DNA from: Kondoa subrosea
Lineage: Eukaryota
Direction: 5' to 3'
NCBI GenBank assembly: GCA_039545335.1
Contig: BCIN01000006.1
Coordinates: 620,001-684,000, forward strand
Length of the DNA stretch: 64,000 bases
A model generated the notes under the pieces. The model was not told where the DNA came from, did not search any database, and worked only from the letters and a program-made list of their open reading frames with translations. Within the stretch, counting starts at the first letter, position 1; each line of letters starts with the position of its first letter. Positions 9,959 through 49,032 of the stretch are shown in pieces. The position numbers and the translations under genes are program-made.

Positions 9959-10725
9959 TCATTCCGATGCAAGTTCCTCTGTGACATTTCCTCCGCTACC
10001 ATCTACAGTTTCCTCGTCCGACACAGCCTCACGAGCTGATGCGTCCGAAATATCTTCATCCAAATCTCGCTCGACCGGGTCCGAAGGTATGATTGGCGGA
10101 GGAGGTTGATTTCTTCGTGCTACTGGAACATGAATAGTAGGTTGCGGCAACGGATCTGGCGGAATGGTGTCGGGCGGCAGGGTGATGCCAGCTTCTTCTG
10201 CAGCTGCACCAACTCTCGGATGCTGGCTTTGCATAGGCGGCTGAGGGGATCCTTCACTACAAAGATCGAGCAGAGTTAGTCACTGCGTGCGGCTTGGCTC
10301 AAGCTGATTACGCACTCGTGGGCAAGCGTGTCCTGGTCAGATAGTCAGCTTGCACGCGTTCGCTCGGAAGAAGATGAACTCACATCCATCTCATCCTCAT
10401 GTGTTGTCAGACGACCTATAGGTATCAGGAAGCTATGTCCATGAGCTCGAATATCATGTTGCTGTGCAAGCATAAATCAGCTCTGCCTGTCTTGCACGCA
10501 AGAAAACGAAGAAAAGAGTCTTACGCCCTGCTCTAGGTCCATCTCCTCGTCCGACAGAGCGTCGGCCTGCTTGGAAAGCATGCGAGAAGGGTGAGAGATG
10601 GGTCTCGGCTGATGCTGCCTTCTCTGCCTGCTGTACACAGAGCCAGGGACATTGTTATAATGCAAAGGTATAGGCACGCTGAGGTCAGGCAGCTGAGACG
10701 GAGGTGGCAGTAAGCTGGCAAACAT
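9959..10725 (-). CDS. APC15/Mnd2-like anaphase-promoting complex subunit
   Basis: Spliced reading MFASLLP...ADALSDEEMDLEQG|QHDIRAHGHSFLIPIGRLTTHEDEMD followed by an acidic tail. Resembles ANAPC15 (N-terminal FPSLFP, LVPIGK, acidic C terminus); recognition from memory, not from a search. Confidence 0.6.
10158..10601. repeat. Inverted repeat, copy A (internal part of APC15-like gene); partner at 14152-14576
   Basis: Reverse complement matches 14152-14576 closely; both encode MQSQHPRVGAAAEEAGITLPPDTIPP. Confidence 0.9.
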
Positions 10726-10851: not shown

Positions 10852-11064
10852 CAAGCAGGAATTCTAGCAGCTACACATTGTGCGGAAGACAACTAGCAGC
10901 TCGAGTCAAAGCTTGGTATCCACATGAGGAACTGAAGGACGCTGCTCTCTTCGACTTCCTCATGCTGGTCTCTCTGTCTATCCTCTCGCTGACTTCCCTG
11001 GAACGGAGTTTGCTCATGTGAATCAACGAGAAAAGCTACTGAACTCTGATCATGACCAGCTTAT
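10852..11064. repeat. Diverged direct repeat, copy 1 (partner 12943-13163)
   Basis: Shared blocks CAAGCAGGAATTCT, AGCTCGAGTCAAAGCTTGGTATCCA, GAACGGAGTTTGCTCAT.TGAATCAACGAGAAA.GCTACTG, TGACCAGCTTAT. Confidence 0.85.
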
Positions 11065-11147: not shown

Positions 11148-11906
11148 GATGCTGTATTGGGTTACGTAATCAGCCTGCGTGAGCTGAAAACCGCTCATCG
11201 CGACTATTGGCTGATACCAAATCACGTCGTTTGCTTTAGTCGTCTGAAGACATCTATCTCTGCTGAATTGCCGAAACGAAATGTGCCTCGTTCGCCCGAA
11301 CGGCCCTAAGATTGCCCTTGTTGTCTAGGTCTACGACTCAAGCTAGGCTGCCAGTCAATACTCTGCCATCTGAAAGTAGATCGTAGCCATGTGGTACTTC
11401 GTGTCAATCATCAATCTCAAGATTGGGGCTCGTCATGCATTTTTTTGCGACTTCATCCTGGTGCACTTCAACAGAGCGATACAAGGATGCCTCGAGACCA
11501 AACAGAGCCTGTTCTCACTCTTCATTTAACCAGTCGAATGCAATATACGCTCCGCAGATCAAATCTCAGGTTCTCGAAGATGGACAGGCAAACTAGGCAT
11601 CTTCGGCGATCGTTCGGTACCGCAAGACATTGATCATTCAACACACAAAGGAGCGACCATCCTAAGCGAATACATGCATTACATAATACTGTAATTGAGA
11701 TCGACAATGTACAGCAAAGCGCTGATCCTCATCGAAGCACCCTTCCAGCAAGGTCTACGAGTTTAACACCTCCGCTCGTTCGGTTGAATAGTCTAGCGGT
11801 TAGGACGTAAGCGATCATCATGGCCTCGTCCTAGATCTCTTCTCATTCTTCTACGTTTTCAGACCAGATTTTGATACAATACTGTTGACCTTCTGGTAAC
11901 CTGGGT
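11148..11906. repeat. 759-bp direct repeat, copy 1 (identical to 13362-14120, offset 2214)
   Basis: Sequence appears identical on reading, apart from an N at 13406; the ORF track reports identical ORFs 11391/13605 and 11522/13736. Confidence 0.95.
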
Positions 11907-11976
11907 GTGAGTTGGACCGAATCTTGTCAACCAAATTCATCTGACTTCTCAATACAGTCGAAACCCAGTCCAACCT
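11782..11976 (+). tRNA. tRNA-Gln(UUG) copy 1 with three introns: exons 11782-11806, 11863-11874, 11891-11906, 11958-11976
   Basis: Joined exons give GGTTGAA TA GTCT AGCGGTTA GGAC A CCAGA TT TTG A T TCTGG TAAC CTGGG TTCGAAA CCCAG TCCAACC T, a full cloverleaf with one A6:C67 acceptor mismatch. Introns: GTAAGC..TTTTCAG (56 nt), canonical 37/38 (16 nt), GTGAGT..CTGAC..ACAG (51 nt). Confidence 0.8.
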
Positions 11977-12942
11977 TGCGTCAACGTAAAGCTGGCAAAC
12001 ATGCTCGGACCCGGTAAACTTCTTGGAGCAAAGCGAGCAAGCGAGATATACATGTGGTATGCGACATCCATAGGATCATCGACTCTGGAAGAAGTACTGC
12101 GGTATAACTGCTCAGCACTCGACACGAGCAAGCAAGATCTCCTTCGGGTGGATAATTTGTCGAGATCAATTAGTCGCTAGAGTCAATCTCGCCGAGAAAG
12201 CGATGGAGCTTATTTGCCATTCACACCAGACCAACCTCATATTCGTCCTCAGACTGATCTGTTCTAGTTCCCTCTCTTCAGCGTGCTTCGAGCATGAGCT
12301 TCGCTTGTACCGTCGGGCAACCTACTCGCGAGAAGACCTGGCTATATCACCGCTCTCTATCAACTGACGCTGACTGGCAACTATGCTGTGTTCAAAGTCT
12401 CCTTTGCGCTGTTTTGATCGCATCTCTGGTCCAAGACCGCACCCGAATTGATGCTGATAGCGACAACTGTTGGCTTATATTGTTTGAAATGCTTACTCTG
12501 GTCATCTTTCAAGTCAATTATGACGTATTGGCAAAATGTACTTCTTTCGCCCTAATGAGGCAAACGTCTCAATCAATTCGGCATCATCCATATATCAATT
12601 AGCCTTGAAAGTTACTGCTGATCGGCTCAGATAGCATTGTTATTGCGGATGCATCCTATCAATACCAATTTGGTCTGACTATCATCTCTCTAATTCATCA
12701 TGGGTGGTTTCACTGTAAGCGATCTAAGGCTGAACTTCTTGAGACAGAGCCTGACATTAATTGCCACCGCAATATAGACAGGTTTGCAAACCGATTTCCT
12801 GAGTGTGATCGGCTTGACTGGTACAGTTGGCTGTCTAGCAACGTTTCGACATTGTGTACCGGTCAGGTGCTTCCCGTATAAATGCATTATACGAGATTGC
12901 GTCTGAGATGATGTCTGCACAAGAGGATACTGATACGTATCG

Positions 12943-13163
12943 CAAGCAGGAATTCTTGGGCTAGACAATGCGCTGAAGACAATGGGTAGCTCGAGTCAAA
13001 GCTTGGTATCCAAATAGAAATGTCAAGGTCGCTGCTCTTCTCGACGTTTTCAGGCGGGTCTCTCTGCCTTTCTCTCGATGGCTTCTCTAGAACGGAGTTT
13101 GCTCATCTGAATCAACGAGAAATGCTACTGGAGAGTCTGGACTATGATAATGACCAGCTTATT
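12943..13163. repeat. Diverged direct repeat, copy 2 (partner 10852-11064)
   Basis: Same conserved blocks as copy 1, with substitutions and small indels. Confidence 0.85.
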
Positions 13164-13361
13164 CACGAGGCAACACAGTCGGATTCGCACTAAATGTCTG
13201 CGTGTGCTGCGGAATGTCTGCTCAGTCGTTGCTGAGGAAAGACATCCGCCCAATCCAATCTTTCTCTGACTCTTCTCTATCTCGTCATGTTGGGACGCTT
13301 TCTCACTTAACAGCACTACTATGATCAACCCAAGGTTTTCTCGCCCTGTTCAAATTCTGGA

Positions 13362-14120
13362 GATGCTGTATTGGGTTACGTAATCAGCCTGCGTGAGCTG
13401 AAAACNGCTCATCGCGACTATTGGCTGATACCAAATCACGTCGTTTGCTTTAGTCGTCTGAAGACATCTATCTCTGCTGAATTGCCGAAACGAAATGTGC
13501 CTCGTTCGCCCGAACGGCCCTAAGATTGCCCTTGTTGTCTAGGTCTACGACTCAAGCTAGGCTGCCAGTCAATACTCTGCCATCTGAAAGTAGATCGTAG
13601 CCATGTGGTACTTCGTGTCAATCATCAATCTCAAGATTGGGGCTCGTCATGCATTTTTTTGCGACTTCATCCTGGTGCACTTCAACAGAGCGATACAAGG
13701 ATGCCTCGAGACCAAACAGAGCCTGTTCTCACTCTTCATTTAACCAGTCGAATGCAATATACGCTCCGCAGATCAAATCTCAGGTTCTCGAAGATGGACA
13801 GGCAAACTAGGCATCTTCGGCGATCGTTCGGTACCGCAAGACATTGATCATTCAACACACAAAGGAGCGACCATCCTAAGCGAATACATGCATTACATAA
13901 TACTGTAATTGAGATCGACAATGTACAGCAAAGCGCTGATCCTCATCGAAGCACCCTTCCAGCAAGGTCTACGAGTTTAACACCTCCGCTCGTTCGGTTG
14001 AATAGTCTAGCGGTTAGGACGTAAGCGATCATCATGGCCTCGTCCTAGATCTCTTCTCATTCTTCTACGTTTTCAGACCAGATTTTGATACAATACTGTT
14101 GACCTTCTGGTAACCTGGGT
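13362..14120. repeat. 759-bp direct repeat, copy 2
   Basis: Matches 11148-11906; identity ends exactly at tRNA T-loop position 54 (CTGGGT). Confidence 0.95.
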
Positions 14121-14139
14121 TCGAACCCCAGTTCGACCT
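13996..14139 (+). tRNA. tRNA-Gln(UUG) copy 2 with two introns: exons 13996-14020, 14077-14088, 14105-14139
   Basis: Joined exons give GGTTGAA TA GTCT AGCGGTTA GGAC A CCAGA TT TTG A T TCTGG TAAC CTGGG TTCGAAC CCCAG TTCGACC T. All stems pair (acceptor includes T4-G69), A box TAGTCTAGCGG and B box GGTTCGAACCC are intact, discriminator is U73. 56-nt GT-AG intron 14021-14076 and 16-nt canonical intron 14089-14104. Confidence 0.9.
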
Positions 14140-14144
14140 TTTTT
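14139..14144 (+). terminator. RNA polymerase III T-run terminator
   Basis: TTTTTT immediately after the acceptor stem of tRNA-Gln copy 2. Confidence 0.75.
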
Positions 14145-14151
14145 GGCCTTT

Positions 14152-14576
14152 CCATCTCGCACCCTCGCATGTAAATCCTCCAAGCAGGCCGACGCTCTGT
14201 CGGACGAGGAGATGGACCTAGAGCAAGGCGTAAGACTCGCTCCTTTAACTCCGTGCAGGATGAGCTGATTTACGCTTGCACAGCAACATGATATTCGAGC
14301 TCAACGGACGGCTTCCTGATACCTATAGGTCGTCTGACAACACATGAGGATGAGATGGATGTGAGTTCATCTTCTTCCGAGCGAACGCGTGCAAGCTGAC
14401 TATCTGACCAGGACACGCTTGCCCATGAGTGCTCAATCAAGCCGCACGCAGTGACTAATTCTGCTCAATCTCTGCAGTGAAGGATCCCCTCAGCCGCCTA
14501 TGCAAAGCCAGCATCCGAGAGTTGGTGCAGCTGCAGAAGAAGCTGGCATCACCCTCCCTCCTGATACCATTCCGCC
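14152..14576 (+). pseudogene. Inverted, truncated, frameshifted duplicate of the APC15-like gene
   Basis: Lacks the 5' and 3' parts. Exon 2 reads CAA CAT GAT ATT CGA GCT CAA CGG ACG GCT TCC TGA (1-nt net deletion, premature stop) versus QHDIRAHGHSFLIPIGR in the intact copy. Confidence 0.75.
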
Positions 14577-47409: not shown

Positions 47410-49032
47410 CTAAGTCATGAGAACACCCAGGACAAGTATGGCAAAGAACTCGGAAACCGAATATCGCAACGAAGTTAAACCAGGTGAACCTATAATCAAA
47501 GGGCTTGATGATGAATGGAGATATATATATATACAAGAGCACTGACCAGCAAGTGTCATACTTCCCGCGTCTTTCGAAGATGTAGCCATTCTCGAAGTTC
47601 GAGCGGAGGTCGATGTTGTTTCGGGATCCGAATCGTCTTCTGGTAATTGTGACAAGACGGCTGCGGATGCGTCTGAAGGAGAAGATGCGCTTGCAGCTTG
47701 CTGAAGTTGCGCTTCCGGAGAGGGTGTAGGAACACCGGTATTGACTGGAGTCGAGACAGCTGAATTTCCAGCGACAGTACTCCCTCCAACATTTGCTTGT
47801 GGTGCTGCCGCTGCTTTGCCATTATATAACGGAGGCCCAGCTAGAACACATGTTCAAAAACCGCTATCGCTGGCAAGAGCGACTTACGGATCTGGTAGCC
47901 TGTCATATCGCCTGACCAGATATTTACGGCGTCCACAGTTATGGTAGGAATCTTGACAGCATTTTGTGTAGGCTTCAGAGTTCCCGAAGATGCGAGCTGA
48001 ATCTACGTATAGACGCTCAGCGCATTAGCAGCTAGCAAGCAAACAAAACTTGCCTGGACGCAGACCTATCATATTATTTTAGTCAAAACTCTGCAAGAGA
48101 AGGAATACGCTGACAGGATAAGACTGAGGTGCACCATGAAGAGCAATCAGCTCTTCTCTCAGTAAATAAGCTCCCGGCGCAAAATCAGATGGAATAGTAG
48201 TAGAGTATTTCTGTCAAATTCTATTAGAATACGATAAGAGCGTTTCGTTGCGCTGAGAAAGCTCACCAGATTTGCAGTAATCTGGGCAGTTGCCCATTTC
48301 CCATCTGTGAATCCTGCTTCATCGGTTTTCACCCAATCCAAGGTGGAAGCATCAACACCAGTACATGAATCGCCGCTGAAAGAGCTAGTCAGAATTAGAC
48401 TTGATTTCAAGTTAACAGGAAATACCATGAAGCCATATAGTGCAATACAGGTCCTGTACAAGTGATCAGCAATCGCTCATCTACTCACGAGAAGAAGATT
48501 CACCTAGATGTTCTCCTGGCCAAGCGTTCCAATTGAAAGTCACAGTTGATCCACCTTTAGCAGCAGCATGTGTAGAAGTCTTGACTTTATCGCTATTGCA
48601 AGCTGCTGCTTTATCGGTCAAAGCTACCGGTCCATCTGAATTAACTTCTCTGACTGCTAATTCTGGCATTGGATCTGGAGCTGAATACCACAGAATCAGA
48701 GTAAGGCTATACCAGCGGTCTGATCAGAGATAGACTTACGAGGCGCATAAGGCTAGAGAGGCAGGCTCAGCAATTAGTGTTCCTCCATGACAGAAAATAC
48801 GGACTATATATGCATCGTACGATTGTCCGTCCTAAATAAAGGCATAGAAGGTCAAGAAGACTTCATCTTGTCGAGACGAGAACGTACGATATCGACTGTC
48901 TATGAGTTCATATATTAGTCTGCTTATTCAATAAGCGTAAATGGAATCGAAGCGTACCTTGACATGACCATGAGCCAGAACCGTGCTTGAGAATACGATA
49001 ATGGATAAAAGGCCATTCGTCAAAAGAAACAT
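47410..49032 (-). CDS. AA9 lytic polysaccharide monooxygenase with Ser/Thr linker and hydrophobic C terminus
   Basis: Signal MFLLTNGLLSIIVFSSTVLA followed by mature HGHV (His brace); DGPV; ACN; FNWNAWPGEHL|GP; LIALHG|A; QFYP-like and YPGAYTK-like segments; C-terminal FFAILVLGVLMT*. Confidence 0.85.

Follow-up and report, generated by a model that had tools for sequence, protein, structure and literature searches.

Two copies of an interrupted tRNA-Gln(UUG) gene

Within a 64,000-nucleotide (nt) stretch of Kondoa subrosea DNA (contig BCIN01000006.1, forward-strand positions 620,001 to 684,000; hereafter the window), we analysed two copies of a tRNA-Gln(UUG) gene that are broken up by insertions. 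Copy 1 (11782-11976, + strand) consists of four exon pieces separated by three interruptions, namely an ordinary tRNA intron and two further inserts, A and C, that have the appearance of spliceosomal introns. The features of the two genes and of the repeat that joins them are as follows.

Copy 1
11782..11806, + strand: exon piece 1, tRNA positions 1-25 (5' strand of the acceptor stem and D arm), equal to 13996-14020 of copy 2
11789, + strand: A-box-like TAGTCTAGCGG, within exon piece 1
11807..11862, + strand: insert A, 56 nt, between tRNA positions 25 and 26; starts GTAAGC, ends CAG; putative spliceosome-type intron
11863..11874, + strand: exon piece 2a, tRNA positions 26-37 with the anticodon TTG, as given by ARAGORN after in-silico removal of the inserts
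11875..11890, + strand: ordinary tRNA intron, 16 nt, at the canonical 37/38 site
11891..11906, + strand: exon piece 2b, tRNA positions 38-54, with GGT, the first three bases of the B box, at its end
11907..11957, + strand: insert C, 51 nt, in the T loop between positions 54 and 55; GTGAGT...CTGAC...CAG; cuts the B box; putative spliceosome-type intron
11958..11976, + strand: 3' exon, tRNA positions 55-73; TCGAAACCCAGTCCAACC plus the discriminator T

Copy 2
13996..14139 (to 14144 with its T6 run), + strand: tRNA-Gln(UUG) gene with insert A and a 16-nt intron, no insert C
14021..14076, + strand: insert A, at the same 25/26 site as in copy 1
14118..14128, + strand: contiguous B box (pattern match)
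14139..14144, + strand: T6 run directly at the gene end

Surroundings
11148..11906 = 13362..14120, + strand: identical tract of 759 nt, one N aside, that stops exactly at the first base of insert C
10852..11041 and 12943..13130, + strand: older homology, 82% identical, upstream of the identical tract
11977..13653, + strand: stretch free of runs of 5 or more T, with T4 alone at 12412, 13047 and 13336

With both inserts removed in silico, ARAGORN called copy 1 as a tRNA-Gln(ttg) cloverleaf with good D, anticodon and T arms and a 16-nt canonical intron, which it set one base later than listed above (an equivalent placement at a repeated T). When insert A alone was removed, ARAGORN made no call on copy 1. 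The sequence CCTGGGT, comprising the T stem and the first loop base, reaches to 11906. Removal of insert A from copy 2 likewise gave tRNA-Gln(ttg) with a 16-nt canonical intron, and the acceptor stem of this copy is fully paired. The resemblance of copy 1 to a tRNA is beyond chance, given an 18-nt 3' piece with 3 differences from copy 2 and the ARAGORN cloverleaf.

A split B box and no adjoining terminator in copy 1

The B box (tRNA positions 52-62), the main anchor of TFIIIC, is split in copy 1, and no terminator adjoins the gene. The B-box pattern GGTTCGANNCC occurs in the window at copy 2 alone (14118-14128 and its palindromic partner; 0.29 matches expected by chance). In copy 1 a 51-nt insert follows the third base of the box, and the pattern forms only with 11907-11957 removed. 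An alternative B box, which an earlier note on this DNA had named as a possible refutation of its reading of copy 1, did not turn up: within 11600-12300 every candidate has at least 2 mismatches, and the best one, with 2, lies 170 nt upstream. The A box (tRNA positions 8-19, TAGTCTAGCGG) is the same in both copies and has 2 mismatches to the consensus TRGCNNAGTGG.

The U6 intron of Schizosaccharomyces pombe is reported to carry the B box, which would mean that introns and promoter elements of RNA polymerase III (Pol III) can interleave. We considered a comparable arrangement inside insert C, where GGACCGAATCT resembles a B box with 3 mismatches, and rejected it as not meaningful, since eight such matches occur in 700 nt.

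The end of copy 1 reads TTGCGTCAACG, the first T of which is the tRNA discriminator base at 11976, and TGCGTCAACG follows directly on its 3' side. The first T4 lies at +436, and the first run of at least 5 T is the T7 run at 13654-13660, at +1678. Inside the gene, both the anticodon loop and insert A contain TTTT, so that, provided copy 2 is functional, T4 can scarcely act as an efficient terminator in this organism. We found no dicistronic partner that might excuse the absent terminator (no T arm 3' of copy 1 and no Rfam match), no Pfam family at curated cut-offs in the open reading frames (ORFs) between the copies, and no clear TATA-like element around -30 of either window copy. The earlier note had proposed that the B box of copy 1 is complete only after splicing, that this copy lacks an adjacent T-run terminator and that copy 2 retains both elements, and on all three points it is borne out.

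Compared with copy 2, the 3' exon of copy 1 has A in place of C at position 60, C in place of T at 67 and A in place of G at 69, which makes 3/19 positions different. C67 produces an A6.C67 mismatch in the acceptor stem. Copy 2 and 18/18 parsed environmental genes (described below) have a pyrimidine at position 60 and a U4.G69 pair, whereas copy 1 has A60 and A69.

The 5' part of copy 1 is a recent duplicate of copy 2, most likely

The identical tract comprises the first 125 nt of the copy 1 gene and 634 nt upstream of it; downstream of the tract, copies 1 and 2 show no homology. Judging from the sequence, the 759-nt tract is most likely the product of a recent gene conversion or duplication, and its end, exactly at the start of insert C, is like that of a conversion tract stopping where homology ends. 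Given this identity over 759 nt, neither the age nor the function of copy 1 can be read from its 5' part, intact as that looks.

In contigs of two DNA runs, segment 11148-11906 appears at double depth and branches at 11906 into the copy-1 and copy-2 continuations, with depths in run X1 of 57 and 65 for the continuations versus 121 for the shared segment. The two DNA runs represent one sample, possibly the source, and so lend no independent support; both forms exist in the reads. The sole N of the window lies at 13406, and run X2 shows C>T at the matching position 11192, which is probably the one true difference between the tract copies.

A T7 run lies ~340 nt upstream of each tRNA copy (11440-11446 and 13654-13660), inside the duplicated tract, and would halt Pol III read-through from upstream, including that from copy 1 into copy 2. 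Both tRNA units are bracketed by an inverted repeat (10158-10575 and 14179-14576, 89.5% identical) that looks as if the 5' end of a small gene with introns had been duplicated. Its right-hand copy starts 40 nt past the T run of copy 2 and has an ATG followed at once by TAA, so that one copy may be dead. No third, inverted tRNA was seen beside 10158-10575.

The inserts resemble spliceosomal introns

Inserts A and C are likely spliceosome-type introns, presumably removed by the spliceosome. Each starts at its first base with a 5' splice site of the form GTNNGY (GTAAGC in A, GTGAGT in C), and both end in CAG. The fungal branch-site motif, CTRAY, typically lies ~10-40 nt before the 3' end; insert C contains CTGAC, its A ~13 nt before the end. 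For comparison, a spliced alignment of the window's own MTHFR gene, which resolved five of six intron gaps, gave five inferred introns of 48-57 nt with GTNNGN, CTGAY or CTTAC, and YAG. At 56 and 51 nt, inserts A and C are within this length range and thus fit the mRNA introns of this genome. As to where the inserts came from, no sequence similar to either lies elsewhere in the window.

At 25/26 and 54/55 the inserts sit where the eukaryotic tRNA endonuclease, guided by its ruler mechanism, does not reach. We also looked for the bulge-helix-bulge (BHB) motif, defined as two 3-nt bulges with the cut sites, a 4-bp helix between them and helices flanking. Minimum free energy (MFE) folds of the inserts contained none, the 5' junction of insert A being paired in a helix and not in a bulge. 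A loose and crude scan over 16 offset combinations in 10 inserts found none with the full 4+2+2 motif; insert A reached 2/4 central pairs, and insert C 3/4 with poor flanks.

The helix at the 5' junction of insert A stems from an 8-nt complement, CGTCCTAG, inside the insert (11827-11834), that matches TTAGGACG at 11799-11806, the last exon bases and the insert's first base. Copy 2 has the same arrangement, and this pairing in the MFE folds may be due to chance or be a regulatory or folding feature.

Environmental relatives carry putative introns of the same type in the D arm

When metagenomes were scanned for the unaltered exon sequences of the window, set around a gap of 40-70 nt, there were 0 matches. 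A looser pattern, made up of the anticodon arm, the 37/38 intron and the T arm and requiring a contiguous T loop, returned 22 loci (L001-L022), whose fungal origin was deduced solely from tRNA similarity and intron motifs. In the 400-nt flanks of these loci ARAGORN found no other tRNA genes, and no ORF usable for taxonomy was seen in their flanks. The loci fall into these groups.

Interrupted loci, 14/22 (about 7 distinct sequences): GT...AG insert of 49-60 nt in the D arm
Insert after nt 11: L001, L002, L011, L020, L022
Insert after nt 12: L003, L006, L007, L008, L017, L019
Insert after nt 20: L016
Insert after nt 22: L013, L021
Uninterrupted loci, 4/22: L004, L009, L012, L014
Loci with a degenerate 5' half, 4/22: L005, L010, L015, L018

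The insert lies within the A box in 11/14 interrupted genes. All 14 environmental inserts begin with GTATGT, GTACGT or GTTAGT, have CTAAY 11-13 nt before the 3' end and terminate in YAG. Their removal in silico yielded a tRNA-Gln(ttg) call by ARAGORN in every case (14/14), while before removal 12/14 were without a call and the other 2 received an odd alternative one. Together with the two sites in the window, the four environmental sites make six, five in the D arm and one in the T loop; that six independent inserts should all be GT...AG by chance has a probability of (1/256)^6.

At the sequence level, selection is visible in this class, exons and splice signals being conserved and insert interiors diverged. 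Between L001 and L002, the exons agree at 72/72 positions, the last 22 nt of the insert at 21/22 and the 5' hexamer at 5/6, versus 14/26 in the middle of the insert and about 50% in the flanks; L003 and L007 show the same conservation pattern. Hallmarks of Pol III are also retained: among the 18 parsed loci, a T4 run starts at most 15 nt past the discriminator in 18 and a T5 run at most 50 nt past the gene in 16. A 37/38 intron of 12-34 nt is found in copy 1, copy 2 and 22/22 environmental loci, in the last by design of the search; inserts A and C differ from such ordinary tRNA introns by their mRNA-type signals and their 25/26 and 54/55 sites.

L013 and L014 have their downstream flank in common, with the insert present in the former and absent from the latter. 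The 49-nt GT-AG insert after nt 22 is shared by L013 and L021; L014 has a similar 34-nt canonical intron, and the upstream flanks differ.

The L016 insert resembles that of the L003 family (L003, L006, L007) in its GTTAGT start (6/6) and in its last 22 nt, from the branch to the 3' end (18/23), and sits 8 nt further on (after nt 20, not 12) in identical exon sequence. This comparison hints at intron relocation.

The four degenerate loci appear to be second tRNA-Gln copies, with a good 3' half, a homologous downstream flank, an unrecognisable 5' half and a changed 3' strand of the acceptor. L010, L015 and L018 lie ~4.5 kb from an interrupted, intact-looking copy on the same contig, in opposite orientation, and such pairs echo the good and bad copies of the window. 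In L003 and L007, the 50 nt upstream of the gene are conserved (42/50, versus 77/150 further out) and include ATAAAT at ~-35, which makes them a candidate upstream Pol III promoter element.

Comparison with known systems

According to the relevant passages of a review (PMC5855946), U6 genes of S. pombe and other fungi, basidiomycete yeasts included, are transcribed by Pol III and contain spliceosomal introns; splicing by the spliceosome is established for the Pol III-made S. pombe U6 and inferred for many other fungal U6 genes. The same passages list mRNA-type introns in U6, U2, U5 and U1 and in lichen-fungus rDNA/rRNA, with tRNA not among them (PMC5855946). Like the genes described here, fungal U6 as portrayed in those passages is a small stable Pol III RNA gene whose short introns have canonical 5', branch and 3' sites, are otherwise unconserved, vary in position and were apparently gained repeatedly. 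The lineage fits too, the window being Pucciniomycotina-like. Unlike U6, the host RNA here is a tRNA, which lies outside the spliceosome. The explanation favoured for U6, reverse splicing into an RNA at the catalytic centre, is not directly applicable to it, and excision of its 37/38 intron calls for another splicing system, unrelated to the spliceosome.

Nuclear tRNA genes of Cyanidioschyzon merolae have ectopic or multiple introns and permuted genes, as excerpts of two studies describe (PMC3978253, PMC3728597). These introns, of 11-69 nt, form BHB motifs and are substrates of the tRNA endonuclease, and TFIIIC-independent transcription by Pol III from an upstream TATA-like element has been proposed (both in passages of PMC3978253). 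As in the window, introns are described there as breaking up A and B boxes away from the canonical site, in the D and T arms among other places. Unlike those of C. merolae, the inserts studied here have the form GT...CTRAY...YAG and no full BHB, and copy 1 is without a downstream T stretch.

With tRNA pseudogenes, copy 1 shares the lack of a working B box and terminator, an acceptor mismatch and a position in a recently rearranged, duplicated region. Four environmental loci are likewise degenerate, three of these second copies sharing a contig with an interrupted, intact-looking copy. Unlike pseudogene damage, the interruption of copy 1 is precisely excisable by GT-AG rules, restoring the T loop.

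No paper that describes tRNA genes with spliceosomal introns came up in full-text searches of the literature outside subscription journals. A 2025 article, in the passages on the subject, treats the three nuclear intron types as separate, spliceosomal introns belonging to transcripts of RNA polymerase II (Pol II) and tRNA introns being removed by a protein endonuclease at 37/38 (PMC12530127). The class described here would extend mRNA-type introns in small-stable-RNA genes to tRNA. Should these introns be spliced, the fungi concerned would depend on the spliceosome for their tRNA supply, Pol III transcripts besides U6 would enter it, and intron gain into abundant structured RNAs would be broader than the idea of an RNA at the catalytic centre, put forward for small nuclear RNAs, allows for.

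Copy 1 as a probably crippled paralogue

In the reading that we favour, copy 1 is a genuine paralogue, though most likely a crippled one whose 5' part was recently overwritten by copy 2, and belongs to a class of fungal nuclear tRNA-Gln(UUG) genes with spliceosome-type introns; we put the probability of this reading at roughly 0.5. In this class, retention of T runs and B boxes argues for Pol III and the splice signals argue for the spliceosome, so that its members look like Pol III genes with transcripts that depend on the spliceosome. Normal members (copy 2 and the 14 interrupted environmental genes), which have an mRNA-type intron in the D arm and retain B box and T run, would be transcribed by Pol III via TFIIIC and TFIIIB. 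Their GT-AG intron would be excised by the spliceosome, as in the Pol III-made U6 RNA of fission yeast, and their 37/38 intron by the tRNA splicing endonuclease, with the ends trimmed. This order is suggested because the D-arm insert must leave before the mature domain folds.

In copy 1, the additional T-loop intron would abolish the main anchor of TFIIIC, and a terminator is lacking. The gene is thus pictured as probably silent, or transcribed weakly and aberrantly, with its 3' exon drifting. Its first 125 nt and the 634 nt upstream would owe their pristine state to very recent conversion or duplication from copy 2, an overwriting that would reach up to the T-loop intron, where homology ends. 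Which polymerase acts, the cutting by the spliceosome and the silence of copy 1 are points that we infer from these sequence features. Either way, copy 1 offers a natural experiment on the survival of a tRNA gene after loss of its B box.

The earlier note had held that copy 1 is either silent or made by another route. This either/or is sound, and the deviations A60, C67 and A69 of the 3' exon lean towards a silent or crippled gene. The note's further argument, that a Pol II route would explain access to the spliceosome, is weakened, since copy 2 and 14 environmental genes have the same kind of insert yet bear Pol III hallmarks, and since the Pol III-made U6 of fission yeast is spliced by the spliceosome (established according to the passages of PMC5855946).

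Several points weigh against a crippled copy 1 or against its place in a spliceosomal class. The splice signals of insert C are flawless, where a long-dead pseudogene might have lost them, although by our own arithmetic ~1 in 10 would retain 14 signal bases at roughly 15% divergence. The A6.C67 mismatch may be a mere by-product of very recent conversion: an earlier G6-C67 together with U4-A69 would give a fully paired stem, so that the changes in the 3' exon fit a once-functional variant too, and A60 and A69 by themselves are thin evidence. The A-box insert in 11/14 relatives suggests that damage to one internal promoter element is tolerated, and perhaps a split B box as well. Insert A, for all its pyrimidine-rich 3' part, has only a weak branch-like CTCAT 18 nt from its end. 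Finally, the metagenome pattern was blind to T-loop inserts, and their absence among the 22 loci is uninformative. A collection of genome contigs scanned for a gene split in the T loop gave 0 matches, a result of no weight since the collection is prokaryotic.

Routes by which copy 1 might be expressed

It is possible, though on balance doubtful, that copy 1 is live, in which case it would produce a tRNA with neither an internal B box nor an oligo-T terminator, from a precursor, made by Pol II or by upstream-driven Pol III, that would require two rounds of spliceosomal splicing and one passage through the tRNA endonuclease. Such a gene would then be the extreme member of a class of spliceosome-dependent fungal tRNA genes.

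One such route, which we regard as unlikely, is transcription by Pol III without TFIIIC binding to a B box. Upstream sequence, perhaps with the intact A box, would place TFIIIB, the polymerase would run on to a weak T4 or beyond, and RNase Z, two rounds of spliceosomal splicing and the tRNA endonuclease would yield a usable tRNA. In its favour are the 634 nt upstream and the A box, in which copy 1 does not differ from copy 2, the 11/14 interrupted environmental genes with an insert in the A box, the conserved ATAAAT-bearing 50 nt upstream of L003 and L007, and the perfect splice signals of insert C. Against this stand the departures of the 3' exon from conserved bases, the lack of a clear TATA-like element ~-30 of the window copies and the fact that fungi normally possess TFIIIC. 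The precedent of C. merolae cuts both ways: tRNA genes there have broken or permuted A and B boxes, and TFIIIC-independent transcription is proposed for them, but they retain a downstream T stretch, of which copy 1 has none over 1.68 kb (as far as the passages of PMC3978253 on these genes go).

Still less probable, in our estimate, is a capped Pol II precursor that would be spliced twice co-transcriptionally and from which RNase P and RNase Z would free the tRNA. Such a route would explain all at once why copy 1 has neither an unbroken B box nor a T run and why it carries two introns of mRNA type, and the internal TTTT runs would be irrelevant to it; tRNA-like RNAs are cut from Pol II transcripts elsewhere, as with mascRNA from MALAT1. 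We found no promoter, ORF or family match around copy 1, however, and the gene shares an identical upstream sequence with the Pol III-looking copy 2. Nor is Pol II required to account for spliceosome access, since sister genes interrupted by introns of this type retain Pol III terminators.

We consider it very improbable that the inserts are not spliceosomal at all, being either inert insertions in dead genes kept alike by conversion or introns cut by an endonuclease as in red algae and archaea. Gene conversion is demonstrably active here and could keep the exons of dead copies alike, and four environmental loci do look degenerate. Conversion leaves unexplained the conservation of 5' site, branch and 3' site beside a diverged interior, and the GT...AG ends common to six independent inserts are hardly expected by chance, as computed above. 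With regard to an endonuclease, some offset combinations of the loose BHB test do give a 4-bp central helix, but 0/10 inserts show the full helix-bulge-helix-bulge-helix and none does in MFE folds, and insert lengths and motifs match the genome's mRNA introns.

An assembly artefact, in which a mis-join at a collapsed repeat created the odd 3' end of copy 1, is scarcely credible: the 759-nt repeat is indeed collapsed in the contig graph and contains the one N at 13406, but both continuations abut the repeat directly in read contigs at single-copy depth each, and a wrong pairing of flanks would change neither gene, as the whole 5' part is inside the repeat.

The host window and detection of the genes

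The window is fungal nuclear DNA, with Pfam matches to a fungal-specific transcription factor domain, PAN2, MTHFR, CAF1A and Nuf2. The best matches of the MTHFR fragment, at 58-61% identity, are from Pucciniomycotina such as Mixia and Microbotryomycetes, and by this comparison the window is Pucciniomycotina-like.

At default settings ARAGORN found no tRNA in the window, and Rfam gave no tRNA match in it, either at gathering thresholds or with E up to 1. With introns allowed, ARAGORN misreads copy 2 as a tRNA-Asn(GTT) with a single 70-nt intron; we rejected this reading, whose anticodon stem contains two non-pairs, in favour of the Gln reading with its complete pairing. Standard tools miss such genes altogether, and the tRNA sets annotated for fungi may therefore be incomplete. 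Elsewhere in the window, at 47678-47746 on the + strand, lies a weak match to the C/D-box small nucleolar RNA sR32 (19.8 bits, E 0.54, under the gathering score).

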